A stretch of DNA of 64,000 bases. Source: Clostridia bacterium. GTDB lineage: Bacteria; Bacillota; Clostridia; Oscillospirales; CAG-272. The DNA lies in contig JAFUMU010000083.1 in NCBI GenBank assembly GCA_017482495.1, positions 3,342 to 67,341 on the forward strand, in the 5' to 3' direction. The notes beneath the pieces were generated by a model. That model saw only the letters and a program-made list of their open reading frames with translations, did no database searches and had not been told where the DNA came from. Within the stretch, counting starts at the first letter, position 1; every line of letters begins with the position of its first letter. Positions 5,182 through 48,101 of this stretch are shown one piece after another. Both the position numbers and the translations under genes were made by a program.

Positions 5182-6429
5182 ATGAACATTTCAAATGAAA
5201 CAAGGTCGCTCTGCCTGCAGGCGGAGGAGGCGCTAAGCGAGCAGTTTGCTCATATAGATAAGGTTTCCCGCATATGCACGGAACGGGTCATGGACATTTT
5301 CCGCGAAGAAAGAGTTAACGAATCCATGTTTGCCGCAACGACGGGCTACGGCTACGGCGACCGCGGACGCGATGCCATCGACCGAATTGCCGCAAGAATT
5401 TTCGGCGCAGAAGCAGGATTTATGCGCCCTTCAATACTCAGCGGTACCCACGCCATCTCCATCGGTCTTTTCGGACTTCTCCGTCCCGGCGACATAATGC
5501 TTTCCGTTACAAGCGCGCCCTACGACACACTTCGCGGAGTTATCGGTATCGGCGACAGCTGCGGACAGGGCAGTCTTGACGAATTCGGCGTTGAATACCG
5601 TCAGATAGAGTTCAACAGCGAGGGCTACATAGACATTCCTGCTCTTGATGCCGCTATTACAGAATGCGGCGACAGGCTGAAGGTGGTATTTATGCAGCGC
5701 TCCAAGGGTTATCTTGACAGACGCACGCTTTCAGTTGCTGAAATTGCAGAGGTTGCCAAGCTGGTTCACTCCAAGTGCAATGCTTACGTGGTTCTTGACA
5801 ACTGCTACGGTGAATTTACGGAAACCACCGAGCCCGCCGCCCACGGAGTTGACCTTATGATAGGCTCACTCATAAAAAATCCCGGAGGCGGTATGGCTGA
5901 TATCGGCGGATATCTTGTAGGCTCCCCCAAGGCTGTAGAGCTTGCAAGCTACAGACTCTCCTGCCCCGGAGTCGGGCTTGAAGTCGGCGCATCTCTCGGT
6001 CAGAACAGAAATCTTCTGAGAGGTCTGTTCTTTGCCCCCCACACCACAGCTCAGGCATTGAAAACAGCCCATCTTGCCGCATATATCTTTGACAGTCTGG
6101 GCTACGAGGTCTCTCCCGGACCCTTCGAGAAGAGAAGCGACATTATTCAGACAGTCAAGCTGGGAAGTCCCGAGGGACTTGTTGATTTCTGCCGCGGCAT
6201 TCAGTCTGCGTCTCCCGTTGACGCATATGTTTCTCCCGAAGCCTGGGATATGCCCGGATATGACGATCCTGTTGTTATGGCGGCAGGTGCATTTATCGGA
6301 GGCTCCTCCATCGAGCTTTCCGCCGACGGCCCCATCCGTCCTCCCTACATTGCATTTATGCAGGGCGGTCTTACCTACGAAAGCGCACGTCTCGGCATTA
6401 TGGCAGCAGCTGACAGGCTTAAGAAATGA
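5182..6429 (+). CDS. YnbB-like PLP-dependent enzyme (aluminium-resistance / methionine gamma-lyase family)
   Basis: Track ORF 5125-6429 trimmed to the internal ATG preceded by AAGGA. Contains TTGYGYGDRGRDAIDRIAARIFGAEAGFMRPSILSGTHAIS, typical of the family. Confidence 0.75.
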   Translation: MNISNETRSLCLQAEEALSEQFAHIDKVSRICTERVMDIFREERVNESMFAATTGYGYGDRGRDAIDRIAARIFGAEAGFMRPSILSGTHAISIGLFGLLRPGDIMLSVTSAPYDTLRGVIGIGDSCGQGSLDEFGVEYRQIEFNSEGYIDIPALDAAITECGDRLKVVFMQRSKGYLDRRTLSVAEIAEVAKLVHSKCNAYVVLDNCYGEFTETTEPAAHGVDLMIGSLIKNPGGGMADIGGYLVGSPKAVELASYRLSCPGVGLEVGASLGQNRNLLRGLFFAPHTTAQALKTAHLAAYIFDSLGYEVSPGPFEKRSDIIQTVKLGSPEGLVDFCRGIQSASPVDAYVSPEAWDMPGYDDPVVMAAGAFIGGSSIELSADGPIRPPYIAFMQGGLTYESARLGIMAAADRLKK

Positions 6430-6436
6430 TTAGTAA

Positions 6437-6495
6437 TGCAGGGAGGCTTTTTAAGGAAAAGCCCCCTGCACCCCCAAAACCTTTTCGGATAAAAT
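6437..6495 (+). repeat. Solo L module of the intergenic repeat family
   Basis: TGCAGGGAGGCTTTTTAAGGAAAAGCCCCCTGCA hairpin followed by CCCCCAAAACCTTTTCGGATAA. Same as the left ends of the copies at 27045, 37101 and 43748. Confidence 0.75.
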
Positions 6496-6575
6496 CCGTG
6501 GGTCCGCATAATGCACAGCCAAAGTATATGGCACAGAGCTGCGTCAAGCAGTATGAAAAAAGTATTTGCACCGGG

Positions 6576-6604
6576 TTGACCAAATCAATAACATATGGTA
6601 TAAT
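6576..6604 (+). promoter_or_regulatory. Sigma-A type promoter
   Basis: TTGACC (6576-6581), 17 bp spacer, TATAAT (6599-6604). Confidence 0.7.
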
Positions 6605-6610
6605 ATTACG

Positions 6611-6682
6611 ACTGAACAGGCAGCGGCAAGTCCGCGAAGCCGGGTCTTACAAGACAACAGATACGCATCTGTGGGACAGTAC
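6611..6682 (+). promoter_or_regulatory. NiCo (czcD-type) riboswitch aptamer
   Basis: ACUGAACAGGCA..GAAGCCGGGUC..GACAACAGAU..AUCUGUGGGACAGU matches my recollection of the conserved NiCo junction nucleotides. P1 is ACUG/CAGU and three hairpins lie inside. It sits upstream of a CDF transporter. Confidence 0.7.
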
Positions 6683-6711
6683 ACAAAAAGCTGTTTCTCA
6701 GATGCTTTTTT
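6665..6711 (+). terminator. Riboswitch expression-platform terminator
   Basis: GCATCTGTGGGACAG pairs with CTGTTTCTCAGATGC (15 pairs including two G-T wobbles, plus one T-T mismatch) and is followed by a T-run. The 5' arm overlaps the 3' part of the aptamer, so the two folds are mutually exclusive. Confidence 0.65.
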
Positions 6712-6726
6712 ATTTGGGAGGTACAA

Positions 6727-7842
6727 TTGAAAAAAGAGATAAACAGATCGAAAATAGGGCAGATATCCGGAATAATCGGAATAATATGCAACTGCGTTCT
6801 TTCTGCAACCAAAATATTCGCAGGAGCCGTTTCAGGTTCCCTGTCAGTTACAGCAGACGGATTAAACAATCTCAGCGATGCCGCAAGCTCCGTCGTCGCC
6901 TTTCTCGGTTACAGGCTGTCCGAAAAGCCCGCAGACAAGAAGCATCCCTTCGGACACGCAAGAATAGAGTATCTTGCCAATCTGACGGTTGCAACCCTTA
7001 TGCTTTTTATGGGATTTGAGCTTACGAAATCATCCGTTATAAAAATGATCTCCACCGAAAAAGCCTCATTTTCCGTCCTCACCTTCATCATCCTTGCCAT
7101 ATCCATAGCAGTAAAGATATTTATGATGCTGTTCAACAGGCATATGGGCAAAAAGATATCTTCAGCTACACTTATGGCGGTTGCCGCAGACAGCAGAAAC
7201 GATGCCATAGCAACAACCGTTGTTGCCCTTTCAGCCGCAACCGAATATTTTTTCAACATCAAAGTCGACGGTATAGCAGGACTTCTTCTGGCATTATTCA
7301 TACTTTACAGCGGAATAATCACGGCCAAGGGCGCCGTCTCCACTCTTTTGGGCGAGGGCGGGTCGCCGAAGCTGAAAAACGAAATAACAGCTCTTATCCT
7401 CTCAAACAATGATATCATAGGATGCCACGACCTTATAGTACACGACTACGGGCCCGAAAAAATATACGCCAGCATCCACGTTGAGATGAACAAAAACGCC
7501 ACTCCTATGTACAGCCACAGAATAATCGATCTTCTTGAGAGGAAATGTCTTAAGCGCCTCGGTGTGCATCTGGTCATCCACCACGATCCCGTTGCAACCG
7601 ACGATCCGGGGGAAAATCAGATCCGACAAGCAATAGAAGATTTTTTATCGGAAAGAGACCCTCGGCTAAAATTCCACGATCTTCGCATAGTTGAGCGAAA
7701 TACCGCAACTCTTCTCTATTTCGACATAGAGATCCCCGAAGAAATCTTCGGTGAGCGGCACAGCATTGCTCTTGAGCTTGAATCACATCTGAACGAAAGC
7801 CTCAGCCGCCGCTTCATACTGAATATTACCTACGACATTTAA
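6727..7842 (+). CDS. Cation diffusion facilitator (CDF) family metal exporter
   Basis: TTG start 6 nt after GGGAGG. Contains SLSVTADGLNNLSDAASS and KKHPFGHARIEYL motifs, six TM helices and a cytoplasmic C-terminal domain. Confidence 0.9.
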   Translation: MKKEINRSKIGQISGIIGIICNCVLSATKIFAGAVSGSLSVTADGLNNLSDAASSVVAFLGYRLSEKPADKKHPFGHARIEYLANLTVATLMLFMGFELTKSSVIKMISTEKASFSVLTFIILAISIAVKIFMMLFNRHMGKKISSATLMAVAADSRNDAIATTVVALSAATEYFFNIKVDGIAGLLLALFILYSGIITAKGAVSTLLGEGGSPKLKNEITALILSNNDIIGCHDLIVHDYGPEKIYASIHVEMNKNATPMYSHRIIDLLERKCLKRLGVHLVIHHDPVATDDPGENQIRQAIEDFLSERDPRLKFHDLRIVERNTATLLYFDIEIPEEIFGERHSIALELESHLNESLSRRFILNITYDI

Positions 7843-13161: not shown

Positions 13162-14304
13162 ATGACTAAGATAGATATTTTCTCAGGCTTTCTCGGAGCA
13201 GGCAAGACCACTCTTATAAAGAAGCTTATTTCCGAAGCATACAAGGGCGAAAAGCTTGTTCTTATTGAAAACGAATTTGGTGAGATCGGCGTTGACGCAG
13301 GATTTCTTACCGACGCAGGTATCAACATCACAGAAATGAACTCAGGATGTATATGCTGCTCTCTTGTGGGAGACTTCAGTCAGGCACTTAAAAAGGTCAT
13401 AGCAGAATATGCTCCCGACAGGATCCTCATCGAACCCTCCGGAGTCGGCAAGCTTTCCGACGTTATGGCGGCTGTTAAGGGTAGCGCAGAGGGTGCGGAG
13501 CTTTCTGCGGCGGTAACAGTTGTTGACGCTAAAAAATGCAGAATGTATATGAAGAATTTCGGTGAATTTTTCAACAATCAGGTTGAAAATGCAACCACCA
13601 TCGTCCTCAGCCATACCAAGGGACTTTCAGAGGATAAGCTGAACCGTGCAATAGAAATGATCAGAGAGCACAATGCAAAGGCAAGCCTTGTTACAACTGA
13701 GTGGGACGAAATAAGCGGCGCTGATATTCTATCTGTTATTGACGGCACAGATTCCCTTGAAGCAGAGCTTCACAAGCTGGAGGAGGAGGCTGTTTGTCCC
13801 GAATGCGGTCACCATCACGGCCCTCATCATCACCACGATGAAAGCTGCGACTGTCACGAGCATCATCACGACCATCACCATCACGATGAGGGCTGCGACT
13901 GTCATGAGCATCATCACGACCATCACCACCACGATGAGGGCTGCGACTGTCATGAGCATGAACATCATCACCATCATCATGACGAAGAATGCTCCTGCGG
14001 ATGCGGCGGTCACGGTCACCATCATCACCATGCAGACGAGGTGTTCTCAAGCTGGGGAATGGACGGCACACGCAAGTATACAAAAGAAGAGATCGAAAAA
14101 GCTCTTCACGAGATAGAAAACGAAGAAAAATACGGTATGGTTCTCAGAGCTAAGGGGATAGTTCCCTCCGACGGCTGCTTTATCCACTTCGACTATACCC
14201 CCGGCGAAGCAGATATAAGAGAGGGCAGTGCAGTTGCCGCAGGCAGACTTTGCGTTATCGGCTCAAATATCAAGGAAGATGCTCTGAGAGAGCTCTTTGC
14301 ATAA
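13162..14304 (+). CDS. COG0523 (CobW/HypB/UreG, G3E) GTPase metallochaperone with His/Cys-rich insert
   Basis: Walker A GFLGAGKTT, CxCC motif GCICCS and an EPSGVG switch. Carries a long HHHH/CDCHEHHH insert before the CobW C-terminal domain. Confidence 0.9.
   Translation: MTKIDIFSGFLGAGKTTLIKKLISEAYKGEKLVLIENEFGEIGVDAGFLTDAGINITEMNSGCICCSLVGDFSQALKKVIAEYAPDRILIEPSGVGKLSDVMAAVKGSAEGAELSAAVTVVDAKKCRMYMKNFGEFFNNQVENATTIVLSHTKGLSEDKLNRAIEMIREHNAKASLVTTEWDEISGADILSVIDGTDSLEAELHKLEEEAVCPECGHHHGPHHHHDESCDCHEHHHDHHHHDEGCDCHEHHHDHHHHDEGCDCHEHEHHHHHHDEECSCGCGGHGHHHHHADEVFSSWGMDGTRKYTKEEIEKALHEIENEEKYGMVLRAKGIVPSDGCFIHFDYTPGEADIREGSAVAAGRLCVIGSNIKEDALRELFA
13837..13980 (+). repeat. In-frame 48-bp tandem repeat (3 units) coding DE[SG]CDCHEH[HE]H[DH]HHHH
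   Basis: Three consecutive near-identical 48-nt units are visible in the DNA and the protein. A fourth, degenerate unit (DEECSCGCGGHGHHHHH) follows. Confidence 0.85.
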
Positions 14305-17382: not shown

Positions 17383-18150
17383 ATGAACAAGGCTACTCGT
17401 AAGGCTATTATTGCCGGCAACTGGAAAATGAACATGACTCCCTCCGAGGCAGCAGCTGCAGTTAAGAAGACAGCTGAGCTCGTAGCAGGTAAGGACGGCT
17501 GTGAGATCGTTCTCTGCGTTCCCTTCGTTGATATCGCAGCAGCAGTTGAGGCTGCTAAGGGTACTAACGTTAAGATCGGTGCTCAGAACGTTCACTTTGA
17601 GGCTAAGGGCGCTTTCACAGGCGAGATCTCCGCAGCTATGCTCGTAGAGTGCGGCGTTGAGTACGTTGTAATCGGTCACTCCGAGAGAAGACAGTACTTC
17701 GGCGAAACAGACGAAACAGTTAACAAGAGAACTAAGGCTGCTCTCGCTGCAGGTCTTAAGGTTCTTCTTTGCCTCGGTGAGGTTAAGGAGGAGAGACTCG
17801 CAGGTATCACAGATGAGGTTGTTTCTATCCAGACTAAGCTTGACCTTGCAGGCATCAGCGCTGAGGATATGAAGAACGTTATCATCGCATACGAACCCGT
17901 TTGGGCTATCGGTACAGGTCTTACAGCTACTCCCGAGCAGGCTGATGAAACTTGCGGCGTTATTCGTGCAACGATCGCAAAGCTTTATGGCACAGAGGTT
18001 GCAGAGGCTACAACTATCCAGTACGGCGGTTCTATGAACGATGCTAACGCAGCAGAGCTTCTCTCCAAGTATAACGTTGACGGCGGTCTTATCGGCGGCG
18101 CTTCTCTCGTTCCCGAAAAGTTCGACGCTATCGTTACTGCTGCTAACTAA
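17383..18150 (+). CDS. tpiA: Triosephosphate isomerase
   Basis: Contains AGNWKMN, IGHSERR and AYEPVWAIGTG motifs. Confidence 0.95.
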   Translation: MNKATRKAIIAGNWKMNMTPSEAAAAVKKTAELVAGKDGCEIVLCVPFVDIAAAVEAAKGTNVKIGAQNVHFEAKGAFTGEISAAMLVECGVEYVVIGHSERRQYFGETDETVNKRTKAALAAGLKVLLCLGEVKEERLAGITDEVVSIQTKLDLAGISAEDMKNVIIAYEPVWAIGTGLTATPEQADETCGVIRATIAKLYGTEVAEATTIQYGGSMNDANAAELLSKYNVDGGLIGGASLVPEKFDAIVTAAN

Positions 18151-18177
18151 GCTTTAGAATTTGATATGTGTTATTTT

Positions 18178-18676
18178 AAGGGGGGACCTCTCTTTCGGAG
18201 AGCGGTCCCCCTTTTTTTATATGGGGGAACCTCTCTTTCGCAGAGAGGCTTCCCCCAAGCCCCCTCCAGAGAACCTATAACAAGGGTAAATGTTATTAGG
18301 TGCGCTGTATTTCGCGCATTCCCGCCGAGAGCTTTTTCGGTGGAACCTCTCTTTCGCAGAGAGGCTTCCCCCGTACCCCCTCCAGAGAACTTTGAATAAA
18401 GGTGAACGTAATATGATGCGCTGAACGAACGCGTCTTCCCGCCCCAATGCTGTGCATTGGGGATAAGGAAAAGAAAAGGATATTGAAAAAGGAAGCTCGT
18501 TTCCTTTTTCAATATTCTTTTGCTTTTCCGGGCGACCTGCGGTCGCTTACGGGAAGACTAACCTAACTTACGGTGCTCAGAATCCCATTTAGCCTTAGAA
18601 CATCGTAACCACCAAAATAAGCGTTATCTTAAAAGGTTTGGGGGCGTGGGGGCCTTTCCTTAAAAGGCGCCCCACA
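18178..18676 (-). repeat. Intergenic modular repeat, inverted orientation, with duplicated R module
   Basis: Reverse complement of the 27045 and 37101 copies. On the + strand it reads three GGGGGA.CTCTCTTTCG.AGAGAG..CCCCC hairpins, two R modules, the core (GTCTTCCCG...CGGGAAGAC) and the L hairpin at 18645-18675. Confidence 0.85.
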
Positions 18677-18689
18677 TATCCTCTTCCCC

Positions 18690-19193
18690 TCACATATCGA
18701 TCACCAAGGTGTGGCCGTCGGAGAAGCTAAGCTCTATTTTAACGGGAGTACCGTCGGAATCGGTAATGACCTTGCCGGAGAGATCGGGGGATATGACGGT
18801 AGCCTCGGTGAGTCCGTTATCAGCGGCAACGATATCGGAGATCATATCCTCTGAAAGGGAGAATGCCGACTCGATCTTTTTAACGATGCCTGCGGTTTTT
18901 TCACCGAAGGGTATCTCAACATCGCCCATTTTCCCCTTGTATGTACCGCCACTTTTTTCAAGAATATAACCACCGATTATGGAAGGGGAGATGTATTCAA
19001 CGGAAACTGTTTCACGCACACCGTTTTCGTCGGGTGCACTGAGGGTAATTTTAGCTTCATTTTCATTTCCGTCGTACACGAGGACGCAATCGAAGCAAAA
19101 ATCACTGTTCTGATAGTCAAAAAAATTGGTATGTGTAACATCACATGACACCATAAATATAACACACAAAAGGCACAGCACGATCTTACGCAT
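18690..19193 (-). CDS. Lipoprotein, unknown function
   Basis: Trimmed to the ATG after GGGAGGAAAT. MRKIVLCLLCVIFMVSC gives a signal peptide plus lipobox. Confidence 0.6.
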   Translation of the reverse strand: MRKIVLCLLCVIFMVSCDVTHTNFFDYQNSDFCFDCVLVYDGNENEAKITLSAPDENGVRETVSVEYISPSIIGGYILEKSGGTYKGKMGDVEIPFGEKTAGIVKKIESAFSLSEDMISDIVAADNGLTEATVISPDLSGKVITDSDGTPVKIELSFSDGHTLVIDM

Positions 19194-25796: not shown

Positions 25797-27002
25797 ATGA
25801 AATACGATACACTATCTAAAGAACTGTCCCAACGTATAGAGGAGGACAGGCTCAAAGGCAGACAGCCCAAGGTCGGTTTTCCCGATCATATGGCGCTGAG
25901 ACGCCGAATGAATCATGATAAGCCCACTGTGTGGAGACCGGCATTTGTCCGCGACGTAGATAAGATCCTTCACTCAGCCTATTACAGCAGATTTGCCGAC
26001 AAAACTCAAGTCTTTTCCTTCTACAGAAACGACGATATCTCAAGGCGCGCGCTTCACGTTCAGCTTGTATCAAGAATAGCGCGAAGCATAGGAAGCGTTC
26101 TCAATCTCAATCTTGACCTTATAGAGGCTATCGCCCTCGGTCACGATATGGGACATACTCCCTTCGGACACGCAGGCGAGAAATATCTTGACCAGCTTTA
26201 CAGCGGTGCAACAGGACGCCATTTTGCTCACAATGTCCATTCCGTAAGAGTCCTTGACGGTATATATCCCTACAATATGACTCTTCAGACCTTAAACGGT
26301 ATCATCGCTCACAACGGCGAGATGGAATGCGAGATATACCGTCCGAGGGCGCTCTCTTCCTTTGATGAGCTTGACCAGCAGATCGAGTCATGCTACCGCG
26401 ACACAGCAAACTGCGCTCATATTATGCCCTCCACACTTGAAGGATGCGTGGTACGTATATGCGACATCATTGCATATCTGGGCAAGGATAGGCAGGATGC
26501 AGTAAAGGCAGGGCTTATCGGTAAGGAAGAAGATATATTTGAGTATGGGGTAATAGGACGCCATAACGCTGAAATAATCAATAATCTCAGCGTTAACATA
26601 ATTGAAAACAGCTACGGCAAGCACGAGATCAAAATGAGCCGCGATTATTTTGAGGCTCTGCGCGCCGCAAAACGTAACAATTACGAGCGTATCTATCTTT
26701 CCAATGATGTTTCAAAACCGCAAAATGAAATAATCCGACCTATGTTCTGCCGTTTGTATGAAAAACTGGTCAAGGACCTTAAGGAGGATAACAGAACATC
26801 ACCCATATTTGAGCATCATATAATCCCTGTTGACAGCTCCTTCTACAAAAGAGATATCCCCTATAGGGAAACTGATGCCGACACCATAGTTTGCGATTAT
26901 ATCGCTTCTATGACCGATGACTATTTTGTTTGGCTTCATCAGTATCTCTTCCCCCATCTGCCTACGATCGAATATAAGAGCTATTTGGAATTGTCTAAGT
27001 GA
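25797..27002 (+). CDS. HD-domain phosphohydrolase, dGTP triphosphohydrolase-like
   Basis: Contains RALHVQLVSRIARSI and LGHDMGHTPFGHAGE. Confidence 0.8.
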   Translation: MKYDTLSKELSQRIEEDRLKGRQPKVGFPDHMALRRRMNHDKPTVWRPAFVRDVDKILHSAYYSRFADKTQVFSFYRNDDISRRALHVQLVSRIARSIGSVLNLNLDLIEAIALGHDMGHTPFGHAGEKYLDQLYSGATGRHFAHNVHSVRVLDGIYPYNMTLQTLNGIIAHNGEMECEIYRPRALSSFDELDQQIESCYRDTANCAHIMPSTLEGCVVRICDIIAYLGKDRQDAVKAGLIGKEEDIFEYGVIGRHNAEIINNLSVNIIENSYGKHEIKMSRDYFEALRAAKRNNYERIYLSNDVSKPQNEIIRPMFCRLYEKLVKDLKEDNRTSPIFEHHIIPVDSSFYKRDIPYRETDADTIVCDYIASMTDDYFVWLHQYLFPHLPTIEYKSYLELSK

Positions 27003-27012
27003 ATATTTTTGT

Positions 27013-27037
27013 GGGGACTTTTAGTAAGTCCCCTTTT
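27013..27037 (+). terminator. Intrinsic terminator
   Basis: GGGGACTTTTAGTAAGTCCCC followed by a T-run. Confidence 0.7.
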
Positions 27038-27044
27038 GTTTTTT

Positions 27045-27380
27045 GCGGAGGACCTTTTAAGGAAAGGTCCCCCTCGCCCCTCCAAACCTTTTAGTGAAAC
27101 GCTTATTTTGGTGCCTGTGATATTATTCAGCTAAATGGGATTCGGAGCAGATTGCTGTATAAGTCTTCCCGTATGCGACCGCAGGTCGCCGGGAAAAGCA
27201 AAAGGATATAAAAAAAGGAAACGAGCTTCCTTTTTTTATATCCTTTTCTTTTCCTAATCCCAAATGCACAGCATTTGGGCGGGAAGACGCGACATTCAGC
27301 GCATCATATTACATTCACCCTTATTCAAAGTTCTCTGGGGGAGCACGAGGGGGACTCTCTCCGAAAGAGAGTCCCCCTCG
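27045..27380 (+). repeat. Intergenic modular repeat, single-unit copy (L - core - R)
   Basis: L hairpin 27045-27077. Closing helix GTCTTCCCG (27163-27171) / CGGGAAGAC (27280-27288) encloses three hairpins. R module ends with hairpin 27346-27380. Confidence 0.85.
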
Positions 27381-27404
27381 TAAATCATAAAATTCTAAAC
27401 CAAA

Positions 27405-29492
27405 TTAAAACAGTCCGAAGTTAACAACCAGAGCTGCGAACACGATAGAAACCATAGAGAGCAGCTTAATAAGGATGTTGATAGCGGGGCCGGAGGTATC
27501 CTTGAAGGGGTCACCAACAGTATCACCGACAACAGCCGCCTTGTGGCAATCGGAGCCCTTACCACCGTGGTCACCGCCCTCGATATGCTTCTTAGCATTA
27601 TCCCAAGCGCCGCCTGAGTTAGACATAAAAATAGCCATAAGGAAGCCTGTAGCTGTAGCGCCTGCAAGCATACCAACAACGCCTGTGCAACCAAGCAGGA
27701 AGCCTACGGCAATGGGAACAATAACAGCAACGATAGTGGGAAGGATCATTTCGTGGAGGCTGGCCTTGGTACAAAGATCAACACATCTTGCGTAGTCTGC
27801 CTCGCCCTTGCCTTCCATAAGGCCGGGGATCTCCTTGAACTGACGGCGAACCTCAACTACAACGCTCTGTGCAGCCTTACCAACAGATTCCATAGTAAGA
27901 GCCGCGAACACGAAGGGGAGACACGCACCCACAAAAAGACCTATAAGAACGTTGGGATTCATAAGACTGAGGTTAGCGATCTTTTCAGCACCGCCTTCAA
28001 GAGACTGTACCTTTTCAATATATGAAGCCATAAGCGCAAGAGCTGTAAGTGCGGCAGAGCCGATAGCAAAGCCCTTACCTGTAGCTGCAGTAGTGTTGCC
28101 GAGAGCATCCAACGCGTCTGTGCGCTCTCTTACCTCAGGCTCAAGACCTGCCATCTCAGCGATACCTCCTGCGTTATCTGCAACAGGACCGTATGCGTCT
28201 GTTGCAAGAGTGATACCGAGAGTGGAGAGCATACCTACTGCTGCAAGTGCTATTCCGTAAAGACCCATCGATGGGCTGTTTCCGCCGCCTGATACGAAGT
28301 ATGATACCATAACGCAAATAGCAATAATAAGGATGGGGGCTGCAGTTGAAAGCATACCGAGAGAAAGACCGCTGATCATGATAGTTGCGGAACCTGTCTC
28401 AGAGGAATCGGAAAGCTTAATGGTAGGTCTGTATGTATCGGAGGTAAAATATTCTGTGGACTGACCGATAAGCACACCTGCAATAAGACCTGCAAGGATA
28501 GCAAAGTAGATCATCCAGTTTTCACGTCCCAGAACCAACCAAACAAGGGGGAAGGAAAGAATTCCTATAAGAACAGCGGAGAAATTGGTACCTCGGCTGA
28601 GAGCCTTCAGAAGATTCTTCTGACTTGCGCCCTCCTTGGTACGAACAAGGAATGTACCGAAGATGGAGCAAATGATACCAAGTGTCGCAAGAATAAGAGG
28701 AAGAGCCATTGCTGTAATACTGCCGCCGAAAGCAGCAACGCCCAGCGCAGATGCTGAAATAATAGAGCCTACATAGGACTCGTACAGGTCAGCGCCCATT
28801 CCCGCAACGTCACCGACATTGTCGCCAACATTGTCCGCAATAACCGCAGGATTTCTGGGGTCGTCCTCAGGGATACCTGCTTCGACCTTACCTACAAGGT
28901 CTGCACCAACGTCTGCAGCTTTTGTAAAAATACCGCCTCCTACTCTTGCAAAAAGAGCCATGGAGGAAGCACCCATACCAAAGGTAAGCATTGCACCGGT
29001 GATCTCGCTTGCTGTGAGATCGAATACAAACTTAAGCAGGAAGAACCACAGAGAGATATCAAAAAGTCCGAGACCGACTACCGTGAAGCCCATAACGCTT
29101 CCTGCAGAAAATGCAACACGGAGACCGCGGTTAAGACCCTCGCGGCAAGCATTGGCTGTTCTTGCATTGGAAAGAGTGGCTATCTTCATACCAATAAAGC
29201 CGGAAAGTGCTGAGAAAAATCCGCCTGTTACAAATGCGAAGGGAACGAAGGGAGTAAGAAGACCGAAAATCGCCATAACGCCCAGAATAAGAAACATGAC
29301 AGCAAAGAAAACGAGAACTATGGCGTACTGACGTTTGAGATAGGCATTGGCGCCTGCTCTGATAGATGCGGAGATCTTCTGCATCTTTTCTGTACCCTCA
29401 GAAAATTTAAGAACCTTTCTTGCAGTGAACAGCGCAAACAGAAGTGCTGCCGCTGCACCGATGAATGTAAAAATTACAAGATATAATTCCAT
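27405..29492 (-). CDS. hppA: Membrane-bound H+/Na+-translocating pyrophosphatase
   Basis: 695 aa polytopic protein with GGIFTKAADVGADLVGKVE, DNVGDNVGD and DTVGDPFKDT motifs. Confidence 0.95.
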   Translation of the reverse strand: MELYLVIFTFIGAAAALLFALFTARKVLKFSEGTEKMQKISASIRAGANAYLKRQYAIVLVFFAVMFLILGVMAIFGLLTPFVPFAFVTGGFFSALSGFIGMKIATLSNARTANACREGLNRGLRVAFSAGSVMGFTVVGLGLFDISLWFFLLKFVFDLTASEITGAMLTFGMGASSMALFARVGGGIFTKAADVGADLVGKVEAGIPEDDPRNPAVIADNVGDNVGDVAGMGADLYESYVGSIISASALGVAAFGGSITAMALPLILATLGIICSIFGTFLVRTKEGASQKNLLKALSRGTNFSAVLIGILSFPLVWLVLGRENWMIYFAILAGLIAGVLIGQSTEYFTSDTYRPTIKLSDSSETGSATIMISGLSLGMLSTAAPILIIAICVMVSYFVSGGGNSPSMGLYGIALAAVGMLSTLGITLATDAYGPVADNAGGIAEMAGLEPEVRERTDALDALGNTTAATGKGFAIGSAALTALALMASYIEKVQSLEGGAEKIANLSLMNPNVLIGLFVGACLPFVFAALTMESVGKAAQSVVVEVRRQFKEIPGLMEGKGEADYARCVDLCTKASLHEMILPTIVAVIVPIAVGFLLGCTGVVGMLAGATATGFLMAIFMSNSGGAWDNAKKHIEGGDHGGKGSDCHKAAVVGDTVGDPFKDTSGPAINILIKLLSMVSIVFAALVVNFGLF

Positions 29493-35824: not shown

Positions 35825-35853
35825 GGGGGACTTTCTTTCAGCGAAAGTCCCCC
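35825..35853. terminator. R-type hairpin acting as terminator between convergent genes
   Basis: GGGGGACTTTCTTTCAGCGAAAGTCCCCC, the same design as the terminal hairpins of the repeat family. Confidence 0.6.
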
Positions 35854-35863
35854 TTCATAGAAT

Positions 35864-36001
35864 CTAATACAAATTGTTTTTTGAGTCTATAATATAATCA
35901 AGCTTCTCATCGTCGGAAAGAGAATTAAAATACAGCATTTTTTCCTCATTCTGCGCCAGTTCCATTGCCAGTTCCTCAGGCATTTTTATTGTTTCGTCCA
36001 T
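35864..36001 (-). CDS. Possible small protein (45 aa)
   Basis: My own translation: MDETIKMPEELAMELAQNEEKMLYFNSLSDDEKLDYIIDSKNNLY. AAAGGA lies 8 nt upstream. Below the size cutoff of the track. Confidence 0.35.
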   Translation of the reverse strand: MDETIKMPEELAMELAQNEEKMLYFNSLSDDEKLDYIIDSKNNLY

Positions 36002-36078: not shown

Positions 36079-36097
36079 ACCATTGTAGCTACAAAAT

Positions 36098-36190
36098 TCA
36101 ATACAGGGGTGCTGTTACAGGACGGCTGAGACGGAAATTTTCCGAACCCTTTAACCTGATACGGGTAATTCCGGCGTAGGGAGCATTGTT
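36098..36190 (+). promoter_or_regulatory. TPP (THI-box) riboswitch
   Basis: CAGGGGUGC...GGCUGAGA...ACCCUUUAACCUGAUACGGGUAAUUCCGGCGUAGGGAGC matches the TPP aptamer consensus. Confidence 0.9.
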
Positions 36191-36223
36191 TTAAGGCACT
36201 ATTATATTATTTTGCTTTTTACT

Positions 36224-36291: not shown

Positions 36292-37086
36292 ATGAAAAAA
36301 AATTTAGCACTTAAACTTACGGAAAGCGCAATGATGATCGCGCTGGCTACCATTCTCAGCTTTATCAAGCTGGCAAATCTGCCTTACGGCGGCAGTATAA
36401 CTATCGCATCTATGCTGCCAATACTTATTATCGCCGTTCGCTACGGCACACCGTGGGGTCTTTTCACAGGACTTGTCCACGGAACCCTGCAGCTTATAAT
36501 TGATCCCGGACCTCTCAGCTACTTCTCTGACGGGCTGAGCGTTGCGGCAATAATTGTGCTTGACTATATTCTCGCCTTCAGCCTTATAGGCTTAGGAGGA
36601 CTTGCCGGAAAAGCCAAAGCTCCCACTGTTTCACTTAGCATAGGAGCACTTATCGCAGGTGTGCTTCGCTATCTGTGTCACGTGGTATCAGGTGCAACAG
36701 TTTGGGCGGGACTCTCTATTCCCACCTCCGCCGCACTTGCTTATTCCTTCGTCTACAATGCAACATATATGCTTCCCGAAACACTTATCCTCATTATATC
36801 AGCATATTTTATCGCTTCATCTGTGAACTTCCGTTCTCAGCGCCTCGCTCCTGCAAAGCGCGGCGATAAAAAGGTCTCCGTTTTCTCTGTTTTAGGATTG
36901 GCATTTTTCTCCGGCGGACTTATCTTTGACATTGCTTCAGTATTCTCTAAGCTGCAAAACGGAGAAACAGGTGAGTTCGATATCACAGGCATCGCTTCTG
37001 TTAACTGGATCCTCGTTCTTGCTGTAACCGCTGTCTGCTTCGCCCTCGGTGCAGTTATGCTCCTTGTGGCAAAGAGGAAGAAATAA
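36292..37086 (+). CDS. thiT: ECF-type thiamine transporter S component ThiT with C-terminal extension
   Basis: Trimmed to MKKNLALKLTESAMMIALATILSF. Has a ThiT-like six-TM core downstream of the TPP riboswitch and about 80 extra C-terminal residues with two further hydrophobic helices. Confidence 0.7.
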   Translation: MKKNLALKLTESAMMIALATILSFIKLANLPYGGSITIASMLPILIIAVRYGTPWGLFTGLVHGTLQLIIDPGPLSYFSDGLSVAAIIVLDYILAFSLIGLGGLAGKAKAPTVSLSIGALIAGVLRYLCHVVSGATVWAGLSIPTSAALAYSFVYNATYMLPETLILIISAYFIASSVNFRSQRLAPAKRGDKKVSVFSVLGLAFFSGGLIFDIASVFSKLQNGETGEFDITGIASVNWILVLAVTAVCFALGAVMLLVAKRKK

Positions 37087-37100
37087 TTTGAGGATTTTAT

Positions 37101-37608
37101 GCAAGGGGGATTTTAAGGAAATCCCCCCTGCACCCCCAAACCTTTTCGGATAACGCATGATTTGGTGGCTACGATATTCTATATCTAAACGGGATTCGGA
37201 GCAGTATAAGGTAGGTTAGTCTTCCCGTATGCGACCGTAGGTCGCTCGGAAAATTAAAAGGATATTGAAAAAGGAAACAAGCTTCCTTTTTCAATATCCT
37301 TTTCTTTTCCTTAACCCAAATGCAATAGCATTTGGGCGGGAAGACGCGCCCGTTCAGCGCACAATATTACATTCACCCCTATTCAAAGTTCTCTGGAAAG
37401 GGGTACGGGGGAGAACCTCTCTGCGAAAGAGAGGTTTCCCCCGAAAAAGCTTCGTGCGGGAATGCGCGAAATTCAGCGCACCTTATAAAGTTCACCCTTA
37501 TTCAAAGTTCTCTGAAAGGGGCGGCCGGGGTTCCCCAATGCGAGCTTGCCGAGCCTTGGGGGTTCACGGTACGGGGGAATCTCTCTCCGAAAGAGAGATT
37601 CCCCCCGC
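37101..37608 (+). repeat. Intergenic modular repeat, copy with duplicated R module
   Basis: L hairpin 37101-37131. Closing helix 37219-37227 / 37337-37345. First R module ends with hairpin 37407-37442; second R module ends with hairpin 37573-37607. Confidence 0.85.
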
Positions 37609-37624
37609 ATTAATTCACACATAA

Positions 37625-38263
37625 TTAAATTAACTCAGCGATGTCAATGTTTTCACCAATGAGACCGACATAAGCGCCGTCGGAAGCCTCAGAGGAATCG
37701 GGATGAGCCAGGAGCCATTTGTTTCTTGCACGAAGGAGAGTGTCTTCAAAGTTTCTGGGCTCGAAAACAGGCTTGTCTGTGTTTGTACCCTTGGGGAGCG
37801 CAATAAGAACCTTAAAACCCTTGCTTGCATCTGCGTGGCAGGGGGCATAGTGAAGAGTTGTAGCATAGCACTCAACCATAACGCCTGCAGGAGCACGGAA
37901 AGCCTTGACCTTTGCTGTATCCAGCTTGCCGTCTTCTATCTCGTCCTGCTTGGCAACAAGGAGGATAAAATCCTCACATCCAAGATTAAACTCGCTGTCT
38001 CTGTGATATTCAAGGCAGTTGAGACGGGTGTTGTGGCCGTTGCACCAGCCCATCTGAACGGGCATGCCGCCATAGAGATGCTCAGAAACCTCAACTGTTG
38101 CCGGAAGCTCCTGCAGAGCCTCGTCCTCCGCAGTATATTCCACGCCCTCGGGAAGAGGTGTTCTTGAGAGAGCGCCAAGAATTTCGGAAACAGCCTCATC
38201 AAGACCGGAGACAACCTTGCCGTAGGAGGCAAATTCTTTATCATATACTGAATAGATCTTCAT
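37625..38263 (-). CDS. DUF4867-like cupin-fold protein
   Basis: Trimmed to MKIYSVYDKEF after GGAAGGA. Family call from memory (GWCNGHNTRLNCLEYHRDSEF). Confidence 0.65.
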   Translation of the reverse strand: MKIYSVYDKEFASYGKVVSGLDEAVSEILGALSRTPLPEGVEYTAEDEALQELPATVEVSEHLYGGMPVQMGWCNGHNTRLNCLEYHRDSEFNLGCEDFILLVAKQDEIEDGKLDTAKVKAFRAPAGVMVECYATTLHYAPCHADASKGFKVLIALPKGTNTDKPVFEPRNFEDTLLRARNKWLLAHPDSSEASDGAYVGLIGENIDIAELI

Positions 38264-38286
38264 AATTACATCCTTCCGTTCTAATT

Positions 38287-39714
38287 TTACTGCCAATAAT
38301 CAACATCGTGAGGCAAACCGATGTCTTTCGCCTTAAATACAGGATCCTTGCCTGCCTTTCTCTGCTTGGTATAATCGTCAAGCGCTCTGAAAGCATATTT
38401 GCCCAAAATAATGATAACAGGCATATTGATAAGAGTCATTCCACCCATCATAACGTCGGCAACTCCCCAAAGAAGATCTGCGCTGAGTCCGGCACCAAGG
38501 AAGATAACAGCAGAAGCGATAATGTAGTATACTGTGTTGAATACCTTGCCGGGAGTTTTCCTAAGAAGGAAGGTGAATGTCTTATCAACGTAGAAAAGGT
38601 TACCGAGAAGGGTCGTAAATGCAAAGAGAAGCATTGCAACTGTGATAAATACAGGACCGAAATCACCAAGAGTTGCCTTGATAGCCTCCTGAACATAGGG
38701 CGCACCTGAAAGATCTTCTGTAGGAGCGACGCCTGATGCCATACACATAAATGCTGTTGCGGAGCAAACAAGGATAGTGTCGATAAACACAGAAAGAACC
38801 TGAACCAATCCCTGCTTAACAGGATGAGCTACCTCAGCGGAAGCGGAAGCGTTGGGCGCTGAACCGACACCTGCCTCATTTGAGAAGAGACCTCTCTTAA
38901 TACCGTACATAACACAGGAACCGGAGAATCCTCCGAATATAGCCTTAAAATCGAAAGCACCTTTGAAGATCTGATGTAAGATGCCGGGAAGCGCGGGGGC
39001 ATTCATAAGAGTGATAACAAGAGCAACTAAGATATAAGCCGCGCCCATAAAGGGAACGATAAATGAGGTTGCCGCAATAATTCTCTTGCCACCGCCGAAA
39101 AGGCAGAAGCAAACGAGAGCAGCAATAATAAATCCGATTATCCAAGGAGCAATGTTTGCGTGATCCTTGTAAAAACCGTAGCCCGAGAATGTGGACTGCA
39201 GATTGTAGGAGGCAAGCATGTTGAAGCCTACACCGTATGTAAGAATAAGAAAAACTGAAAATACTATAGCAAGAGCACGGTTTTTAAAAGCAGCCTCGAT
39301 ATAGTATGCAGGTCCGCCGAAGCTTCCCTCAGGTCCTCTTTTCTTGTATATCTGAGCAAGTGTACTTTCAACAAAGGCAGATGCACCGCCGATGATGGCA
39401 ATTACCCACATCCAAAAAACAGAGCCGAAGCCGCCGAGGCAAAGCGCCGTTGAAACGCCGACGATATTACCTGTACCAACTCGGGAAGCAGTTGACACCA
39501 TAAGCGCCTGAAAGGATGAAACACCCTTTCCGTCTGCAGGCTTTTCCATAACAGCGCGGAACTGTTCTCCAAGCATTCTGAACTGAACGAATTTTGTTCT
39601 GATGGTAAAATAAATACCGCCGAGAACAAGAAGTATTATGAGAACATAGCTGTAAAGTGCATCATTGGCTGTGTTTACAATGTTCTCAAGAAAATTGATT
39701 ATATTTGTAAGCAT
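38287..39714 (-). CDS. Alanine/glycine:cation symporter (AGCS family)
   Basis: Trimmed to MLTNIINFLE after AGGGGGG. Contains SSFQALMVSTASRVGTGNIVGVSTA and GLFSNEAGVGSAPNA. Confidence 0.9.
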   Translation of the reverse strand: MLTNIINFLENIVNTANDALYSYVLIILLVLGGIYFTIRTKFVQFRMLGEQFRAVMEKPADGKGVSSFQALMVSTASRVGTGNIVGVSTALCLGGFGSVFWMWVIAIIGGASAFVESTLAQIYKKRGPEGSFGGPAYYIEAAFKNRALAIVFSVFLILTYGVGFNMLASYNLQSTFSGYGFYKDHANIAPWIIGFIIAALVCFCLFGGGKRIIAATSFIVPFMGAAYILVALVITLMNAPALPGILHQIFKGAFDFKAIFGGFSGSCVMYGIKRGLFSNEAGVGSAPNASASAEVAHPVKQGLVQVLSVFIDTILVCSATAFMCMASGVAPTEDLSGAPYVQEAIKATLGDFGPVFITVAMLLFAFTTLLGNLFYVDKTFTFLLRKTPGKVFNTVYYIIASAVIFLGAGLSADLLWGVADVMMGGMTLINMPVIIILGKYAFRALDDYTKQRKAGKDPVFKAKDIGLPHDVDYWQ

Positions 39715-40025: not shown

Positions 40026-40227
40026 AGCGAAGACTGTATATCATAAAACGTGAATCTGCGGCAAGCCGCAGTGAAATTTGGGCTATCGCTCAAGTGAAGT
40101 ATTGCACCTGCGATGCAATATGAAGTTAATGTTCCAACTATCGTGCCGAAGGCATATATAATCGCTCGCAGAACGATATCATATCGAAGATATATCACCC
40201 GTTCCGCAGGGAACGGGTATCATTGAA

Positions 40228-40260: not shown

Positions 40261-40351
40261 TGGCGGAGAAGGAGAGATTCGAACTCTCGAACCCTTTTAC
40301 AGGTTACACGATTTCCAATCGTGCGCGCTCGACCAGCTACGCGACTTCTCC
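40261..40351 (-). tRNA. tRNA-Ser (anticodon GGA), CCA encoded
   Basis: Minus strand reads GGAGAAG..CACGA-UUGGAAA-UCGUG..long variable arm..GAGAG-UUCGAAU-CUCUC-CUUCUCC-G-CCA. The cloverleaf was folded by hand. Confidence 0.9.
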
Positions 40352-43725: not shown

Positions 43726-43747
43726 TAGAATAGGAATAATAAAGAAA

Positions 43748-44057
43748 GGGGGCTTTTAAGAAAAGCCCCCCCTGCCTCATGAATATACATCGACTACATT
43801 ATCGTTCAACTAAAATGAATTTCGAAGTATTAGCCGTGTTAGTCCTCCCTGCAAATCCCCTGAATAATCCGGATAATTAAAAGGAGATGGATGTAAAAAC
43901 GGAAGCTTATTTCCGTTTTTACATCCATCTCCTTTTACATTGCCGCTTTGTGGCACATGAGAAGGCGCAAGGTTCTGCGCACATATATTATTACCTTCAT
44001 TTCAGGTTCTCTGAAGGGGGCTCGTGGAGAACTCTCTGCGAAAGAGAGTTCTCCACG
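43748..44057 (+). repeat. Divergent copy of the intergenic modular repeat
   Basis: Same order of elements: L hairpin GGGGGCTTTTAAGAAAAGCCCCC, long central hairpin, GCGCA/TGCGC hairpin, TTCAGGTTCTCTGAAGGGGG, and terminal hairpin 44023-44057. Stem sequences are largely different. Confidence 0.7.
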
Positions 44058-44072
44058 AAATAACTAACCTAA

Positions 44073-47926: not shown

Positions 47927-47941
47927 TTAATTACGTTTTTT

Positions 47942-48087
47942 GCAGGGAACCTATTAAGTATAGGTTTCCTGTCCTCAAACCTTTTGGTATAGGTGTCTTG
48001 TTGGTGTTTGCAGACATTGCTAAAAAGGTCAGAGAGACAGAGAACATAAGGTGGGGGAATCGCTCTTTTGCAGAGCGGTTCCCCCAC
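47942..48087 (+). repeat. Short form of the intergenic repeat (L module + terminal hairpin)
   Basis: GGGAACCTATTAAGTATAGGTTTCC followed by CTCAAACCTTTTGG. Ends with GTGGGGGAATCGCTCTTTTGCAGAGCGGTTCCCCCAC. Confidence 0.6.
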
Positions 48088-48101
48088 TAAATATATACAT
48101 G

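Follow-up and report, generated by a model that had tools for sequence, protein, structure and literature searches.

A large mosaic palindromic repeat in convergent gene gaps of an uncultured Oscillospirales bacterium conserves structure rather than sequence

REPINs and the REP-BIME elements of Pseudomonas and E. coli are palindromic repeats that are mobilised by RAYT transposases. REPINs consist of inverted REP doublets that form hairpins at extragenic positions; compensatory changes are common among them, and singlets as well as tandem clusters occur (PMC3116915). In the bcr1 repeats of the Bacillus cereus group, base-pair compensatory changes keep a cruciform-like structure (PMC3184786). 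Further described elements include the modular BOX (A-Bn-C), whose internal units vary in number, SPRITE, a terminator-like element at convergent gene ends, as well as the ERIC and Correia elements (PMC3184786). That paired changes maintain hairpins has thus been described before, for REPIN, bcr1 and bacterial repeats like them. Arm-to-arm templated correction of DNA palindromes is documented too; here a single template switch can produce both double changes and mirrored indels (PMC8794818). Few such elements have been described in the uncultured Oscillospirales of gut metagenomes, the group of the host studied here, whose nearest named relatives are Acutalibacteraceae and Ruminococcaceae.

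A repeat search and alignment over the 64-kb window, that is, the whole stretch of DNA analysed here, identify region 27045-27380 as one copy (copy B) of a mosaic palindromic repeat, the elements of which are 330-530 bases long and occupy gaps between convergent genes. The window holds five composite copies (A-E) and two solo modules; every copy is intergenic, and all five composite copies sit in convergent (3'-3') gaps. Copy B (about 27040-27390, plus strand) lies between an HD-domain gene and an H+-PPase gene and carries one unit of right arm and R hairpin. This unit is doubled in copies A (18165-18690, minus strand) and C (37095-37620, plus strand); copy A lies between tpiA and an ORF of unknown function and directly adjoins the terminator hairpin of tpiA (18181-18211). 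Copy D (43745-44072, plus strand) represents a divergent subfamily that shares the architecture of the other copies and has a perfect 27-bp central hairpin, and copy E (47935-48095, plus strand) is a short form made of an L module, about 60 nt and then a flipped R-type hairpin. The remaining gaps with composite copies are those between the ThiT gene and a DUF4867 gene, between thrS and a gltD-like gene, and between the gene of a zinc-ribbon protein and cysK. Copy F (6435-6494, plus strand) is a lone L module after a methionine gamma-lyase gene, which the L-module covariance model scores at 66 bits. The other solo module is a solitary R-type hairpin, GGGGGACTTTC/GAAAGTCCCCC, at 35825-35853, where a related species has a full element.

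The window contains about ten convergent junctions, five with an element, one with a solo hairpin and four with ordinary A/T-flanked terminators, and more than 15 L- or R-type G5...C5 hairpins, all of them intergenic. Identity among the copies is 79-84% over the 330-530-nt units (79% between B and C); these units lie at unlinked loci beside unrelated genes. Copies A, B, C and D were recovered base for base in independent metagenome assemblies, so that the element is not an assembly artefact. The sole difference among assemblies of the species is one SNP, which turns an A.C mismatch in the central hairpin of copy A into a G-C pair. On this and the evidence presented below, we hold it to be reasonably likely that the family consists of palindromic repeats restricted to one lineage, which are probably mobile and serve at the same time as two-way terminator cassettes.

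Several other features were seen in the window. Two riboswitches score above their Rfam gathering thresholds: a TPP riboswitch (36095-36199) that precedes the gene of the ThiT transporter, and a NiCo riboswitch (6603-6681) that precedes a cation-efflux gene and comes straight after copy F. A Gut-1 RNA match lies immediately downstream of a tRNA-Ser(GGA) gene (40151-40225 and 40261-40351, both on the minus strand); at 51.1 it barely exceeds its gathering score of 50. A His-codon-rich, 48-nt tandem coding repeat (13800-13991) lies inside a CobW-like gene (13162-14304), and the start codon of the ORF at 37625-38296 is probably wrong.

All copies share a common plan, in which a G5...C5 hairpin adjoins the stop codon of each flanking gene and two mutually pairing arms enclose a three-hairpin core. 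The order is L hairpin, C-rich linker with the motif CCAAACCTTTT, left arm, closing helix, hp1, central hairpin, hp3, right arm and R hairpin, and minimum free energy (MFE) folds render the whole element as a nested imperfect palindrome. The L hairpin (G5...C5 stem, TAAGG loop) begins 10-45 nt past the upstream stop codon. Just outside copy B, on the plus strand at 27013-27043, a terminator scan finds the upstream HD-domain gene's own intrinsic terminator, a hairpin GGGGACTTTTAGTAAGTCCCC followed by a T-run, which is identical in strain contigs. The L hairpin of copy B follows at 27047-27073 (plus strand; GGAGGACCTTT-TAAGG-AAAGGTCCCCC, with one A.C mismatch and 71 bits under the L-module covariance model). 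The C-rich linker and the conserved CCAAACCTTTT occupy 27074-27092 (plus strand); in a motif search this motif has six sites in the window where 0.5 are expected, and it is kept in related species.

The left arm of copy B (27093-27162, plus strand) pairs imperfectly with the right arm in the MFE fold. The 5' strand of the helix closing the three-way junction, GTCTTCCCG (27163-27171, plus strand), is the perfect complement of its 3' strand, CGGGAAGAC (27280-27288, plus strand), and is invariant in copies A, B and C. Within the junction, hp1 (27175-27189, plus strand; GCGACC-GCA-GGTCGC, preceded by CCCGTAT) is a REP-like unit whose sequence is conserved across species. The central hairpin (27200-27247), AAAAGGATATAAAAAAAGGAA-acgagc-TTCCTTTTTTTATATCCTTTT, has 21 perfect pairs with a 5' A-run and a 3' T-run. 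The third hairpin, hp3 (27259-27279, plus strand), reads CCCAAATGC-ACA-GCATTTGGG, and copy A shows a compensated C-G pair where copy B has A-T. The right arm (27289-27344, plus strand) includes the conserved GTTCTCTG at 27330-27337, and the R hairpin (27345-27381; ACGAGGGGGACTCTCT-CCGAA-AGAGAGTCCCCCTCGT) ends the copy 24 nt from the H+-PPase stop codon. In its general form the right arm ends in GTTCTCTG and a G-run, and the R hairpin reads GGGGGAnCTCTCT-SCGAA-AGAGAGnTCCCCC.

The L-module covariance model also matches the reverse complement of the R module of copy B (26.8 bits, E = 8e-5), which indicates that L and R modules are inverted relatives. The second right-arm/R units of copies A and C are closest to each other, so the two-unit form was inherited and not made twice. 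In the second unit of copy C, at 37536-37570, we observed an additional small palindrome resembling hp3, CCCCAATGCGAGC...CCTTGGGGG, which suggests module shuffling or nesting. Folding is strong throughout the family: copy B reaches -152.6 kcal/mol on the plus and -159.4 kcal/mol on the minus strand. The z scores are about -11 for either strand of this copy and -11.4 for copy D, and across elements, those of relatives included, they range from -11 to -20.

A first-pass annotation of this DNA had proposed that compensatory changes between copies preserve the stems, and every sequence that it quoted was found in place on reading 26800-27600, 36900-37700 and 6200-7000. In the central hairpin, the proposed replacement of AA:TT by TG:CA on both arms is evident from comparison of copy B (27200-27247, GGATATAAAAAAAGGAA/TTCCTTTTTTTATATCC) with copy C (37256-37303, GGATATTGAAAAAGGAA/TTCCTTTTTCAATATCC). 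Exactly two adjacent pairs of the 21-bp stem differ between these copies, both arms are changed, and there are no one-sided differences. The chance that four random stem substitutions would form two complementary pairs is about 2e-4, or about 2e-3 if they are counted as two dinucleotide events. The L hairpin was likewise said to differ on both arms, and the three variants at 27047, 37105 and 6441 bear this out. One long-range pair between left and right arm is U-A in copy B, U.G in copy A and C-G in copy C.

The paired changes are non-random, and the two arms change together far above chance in statistics that rest on few, related sequences (about 11 elements in all). Among ten L hairpins from the window and from relatives, both sides change in 7 of the 11 pairs and 93.6% of cells are paired. 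Their covariation score is 0.428; shuffled controls score 0.174 +/- 0.035, with none of 500 attaining the observed value, and sliding the partner yields 0.08-0.15. When the central hairpins of seven copies are paired with their own arms, two non-complementary columns arise in total, whereas a non-cognate pairing has 8.4 on average. The cognate arms are equalled by permutations in 5 of 5000 cases for the central hairpin, and never in 5000 for either the R or the L hairpin. The arm-level comparisons were made by hand in scripts, as MAFFT and RNAalifold applied to four full copies misaligned the divergent copy D.

The comparison of paired with unpaired positions that the first-pass annotation had suggested supports the same conclusion: when copies A, B and C are compared, variation is seen in 39 of the 196 paired columns but in 55 of the 149 unpaired ones (Fisher p = 6e-4). 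Its claim of freely varying loops is borne out for hp1, including the GCA versus GTA difference in GCGACCnnnGGTCGC, for the central hairpin and for hp3, whereas the L loop (TAAGG/TGAGG) and the R loop (GCGAA/CCGAA) are conserved. What is kept while stems vary are the loops TAAGG and SCGAA and the single-stranded motifs CAAACCTTTT and GTTCTCTG. The copies conserve structure and not sequence, and simple drift is excluded. Selection on structure, as RNA or as cruciform DNA, had been put forward as the cause; the conservation of structure over sequence stands, but selection at the RNA level is unsupported.

Paired changes of this kind could also arise from DNA-level correction of one arm by the other alone, through template switching or hairpin-templated repair, in which case neither structural selection nor transcription would be needed. 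The documented mechanism (PMC8794818) fits several observations. The central hairpins are essentially perfect (no G.U, one strain-polymorphic A.C and one C.T in seven copies), a multi-base indel that separates copy D from copies A-C is mirrored on both arms, one element of a related genome has a 38-bp near-perfect long-range helix, and strand asymmetry is absent. Arm correction leaves unexplained, however, why the conserved loops and single-stranded motifs persist beside varying stems, and why paired columns are less variable than unpaired ones. An identical bulged G and an identical A.C mismatch have also escaped correction in several of the L and R hairpins, in different copies and different species, and the persistence of these bulges and mismatches is evidence against wholesale homogenisation of L and R. 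Moreover, such correction accounts for the maintenance of hairpins but not for the spread of the family. As a full account we regard it as unlikely. In the reading that we favour, that of a mobile repeat with a terminator function, template-switch repair between arms would be the likely mutational route to the double changes. The stems may then stay paired by selection of a fold that is needed on both strands, which would favour pure Watson-Crick pairs.

In the related genome GCA_054272055.1 (L007; PPase 94% identical), three elements follow this architecture (L, arm, three-way junction, arm, R) but differ in their stem sequences; among them is the one with the 38-bp helix, and their folding z goes down to -19.7. 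One of its stretches, 17975-18290, has an L module at each end. Modules are also found in two further close relatives, L018 and L041. When 185,579 species genomes were scanned for motifs of the family in two runs, no real match emerged, and one chance match in Polynucleobacter. A scan of metagenome contigs gave one match, the 1-kb contig L001, and two scans of viral contigs gave only chance matches in coding sequence. The family was absent from the stretches fetched of relatives at 87% PPase identity, as well as of two relatives at 93-94% ThrRS identity. Within the scans and stretches searched, it is thus confined to the host species and a few close relatives.

Some of the related sequences show additional arrangements. 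At 5350-5650 of L041, downstream of thrS, three tandem REP-like units, CCCGTAGG(G/A)GCG...CGCCC, resemble hp1 with its CCCGTAnG foot. Public short-read contigs end within the repeat in four instances (L002 at 2467-2728, L003 at 2162-2390, the end of L005 and the start of L044), and in two of them the break falls precisely within the central hairpin's loop. The L002 stretch, located after the same HD-domain gene, has an extra degenerate L-type hairpin with TTTTGTTTTTTGCGG duplicated around it, and its interior is a different, paralogue-like sequence with the hp1 GCGAC-TATA-GTCGC. This stretch represents either a chimeric contig or a variant of the strain that arose when copies recombined.

Occupied sites differ between close relatives. 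At the orthologous site between the Cu-oxidase_4 gene and a small ORF, which has cleanly alignable flanks, a 370-nt element in L007 stands against the 29-nt R-type hairpin in the window. This difference could be due to insertion beside the hairpin, or the hairpin could be the remnant of a deletion. The conserved small ORF of about 42 codons (35873-36001, minus strand; 16578-16706 in L007) converges on the Cu-oxidase_4 gene, and falls below the 80-aa cut-off used for the ORF listing of the window. In L007, tpiA and the PPase gene end with ordinary terminators, as does thrS in the relatives L039 and L040. In their behaviour the copies resemble a dispersed DNA repeat of a single lineage that is polymorphic for presence and absence, a MITE-type trait that is joined by terminal inverted repeats of MITE type, given that the L and R modules are inverted relatives and the arms pair. 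Within the species no ongoing movement was seen, the copies being fixed and identical in all assemblies apart from the one SNP. Pfam annotation of 30 ORFs in the 64-kb window returned housekeeping genes only and neither a transposase nor a RAYT gene. No target-site duplication was found at the boundaries of seven copies (A-E, L001 and a second L007 element, L007_2), which have AT-rich flanks and no shared direct repeat, and no parent insertion sequence with the same ends was found in the window or in the loci fetched.

A more specific version of mobility can be envisaged, namely a hitherto undescribed repeat system of Clostridia mobilised as single-stranded DNA. Here, a nested palindrome of 300-500 nt with its three-way junction would be recognised at the loops, at hp1 and at CAAACCTTTT/GTTCTCTG by a hypothetical enzyme of HUH/Y1 type or another kind, would insert beside terminator hairpins at 3' ends of genes, carrying a two-way terminator of its own, and would be a domesticated terminator cassette able to spread through the genome. 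In this detailed form we consider the proposal improbable. The broader reading, which we prefer, supposes non-autonomous mosaic palindromic DNA repeats that would work like REPIN, BIME or MITE elements and colonise the 3'-3' gaps of this uncultured Oscillospirales bacterium. Copies would spread as DNA, probably via a folded single-stranded intermediate, and the enzyme recognising them would presumably be encoded outside the window.

We also weighed whether the copies belong to a structured RNA family, either as 3'-UTR elements or as stand-alone small RNAs, with the three-way-junction fold selected on one strand. The covariation in local hairpins, the long-range series of U-A, U.G and C-G and the very low folding energy would fit such a family, and the L module, given its distance from the stop codon of the co-oriented gene, would be transcribed as part of a 3' UTR. 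Yet the opposite strand folds equally strongly, and G.U pairs are in excess on neither strand of the MFE folds (69 when the canonical strand is folded, 62 for its reverse complement). In the curated hairpins, the strand co-oriented with the upstream gene has eight A.C mismatches and three G.T (p = 0.23), where an RNA from the sense strand would be expected to show the opposite bias. The Rfam search of copies B and C, at gathering scores and at E <= 10, returned only generic microRNA-like hairpin matches far below threshold, and no promoter-like site was found in the repeat copies scanned. If the central hairpin terminates from both sides, the left and right arms would never be in one transcript, and copy B is in addition preceded by the terminator of its upstream gene. 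The number of modules varies, solo modules exist, and the family is limited to few close relatives. Nothing points to a strand-specific RNA; the evidence, to which the mirrored multi-base indels can be added, points away from RNA as the selected molecule, and we judge this explanation to be very doubtful.

In each of copies A-D, the central hairpin is picked up by a consensus scan as resembling a terminator in either direction, and judged on sequence features it looks like a bidirectional intrinsic terminator. Its stems of 17-27 bp are AT-rich (4-8 G-C pairs of 20 counted) and are in length and composition unlike those of the usual terminator, which is G+C-rich and about 5-14 bp long; the U-tracts of the central hairpins in L007 are weak. 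A requirement for folding on both strands, be it as RNA of a two-way terminator or as DNA, would favour pure Watson-Crick pairs, which matches the perfect central stems. R-type hairpins appear to be involved as well. The hairpin adjoining the PPase gene is identical in L018 and the window, and in L018 it is followed by a T-run and then by more R-type hairpins; the same layout is found after tpiA in the window (18171-18260). R-type hairpins thus seem to double as native terminators, and the elements abut them.

From these T-run-followed hairpins at tpiA and at the PPase gene of L018, together with the fixation of copies within the species, one could argue that the copies are immobile host terminators that diversified locally and whose similarity is upheld by recombination among them. 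This is hard to reconcile with units of such length and identity at unlinked loci by unrelated genes, with occupied sites that differ among close relatives and with the simple, unrelated terminators at the other four convergent junctions of the window, and it appears highly improbable to us. CRISPR, integron attC, retron, IS200/IS605 guide RNA and group II intron were rejected, since the genes associated with them are missing and neither the spacing nor the architecture fits.

Altogether, a mobile palindromic repeat doubling as terminator cassette remains the reading that we favour. In this scenario, copies may persist through what a convergent gene pair gains from them, namely a two-way terminator and protective 3' hairpins. 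If the terminator-cassette idea is true, the family would be a selfish repeat that earns its keep between convergent genes. Strong covariation without an RNA gene also calls for caution in covariation-based searches for non-coding RNAs. On the practical side, perfect palindromes break short-read assemblies and so reduce the contiguity of metagenome-assembled genomes in this lineage. The family adds a well-defined, unusually large and modular member to the small palindromic repeats of bacteria.

Among the known systems, the likeness to REPIN and REP-BIME elements comprises several traits. Both have short, G+C-rich palindromes in extragenic positions, often between convergent genes; inverted doublets give a long hairpin with both-sided compensatory changes (PMC3116915); and mosaic palindromic clusters (BIMEs) occur along with singlet remnants and higher-order tandem arrays. 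The inverted doublet layout of REP type is present here, as the reverse complement of R matches the L model and the MFE folds are nested. In contrast to REPIN and REP-BIME, the present element is 3-5 times longer (330-530 nt), its core is made of three hairpins, and one hairpin in its interior resembles a terminator. Its terminal L and R hairpins are without the 5' GTAG, and only the internal hp1 has GTA(G/A/T), in a foot that reads CCCGTA(G/A/T)G in four copies and CCCGTCAG in L007, the units of L041 reading CCCGTAGGGGCG...CGCCC. No RAYT gene was seen in the 64-kb window, and the host belongs to Clostridia and is not a proteobacterium. With no target-site duplication, a GTAG-like foot only at hp1 and no transposase seen, membership in REP/RAYT or MITE is not established.

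The ERIC and Correia elements are, like the present family, full-length imperfect palindromes that fold into long hairpins. They are co-transcribed with their neighbours, measure 100-155 bp, have defined terminal inverted repeats and TA duplications (Correia), and reside in proteobacterial hosts. The bcr1 repeat is another parallel, being an intergenic MITE-type repeat of a Firmicute that shows compensatory changes and a distribution that differs between close relatives. It is about 155 bp long, however, has 5-bp direct repeats at its ends, is known to be transcribed and showed no sequence relation to the present family. The BOX element of Streptococcus pneumoniae resembles our family in its variable internal units, comparable to the one or two right-arm/R units, but its modules are unrelated in sequence, and SPRITE of S. 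pneumoniae is a single hairpin of about 105 nt; both are without the nested palindrome and three-way junction. The family described here combines traits of REPIN, bcr1, SPRITE and BOX, is larger than these, and is best classed with them in a general sense, as a family that is new.
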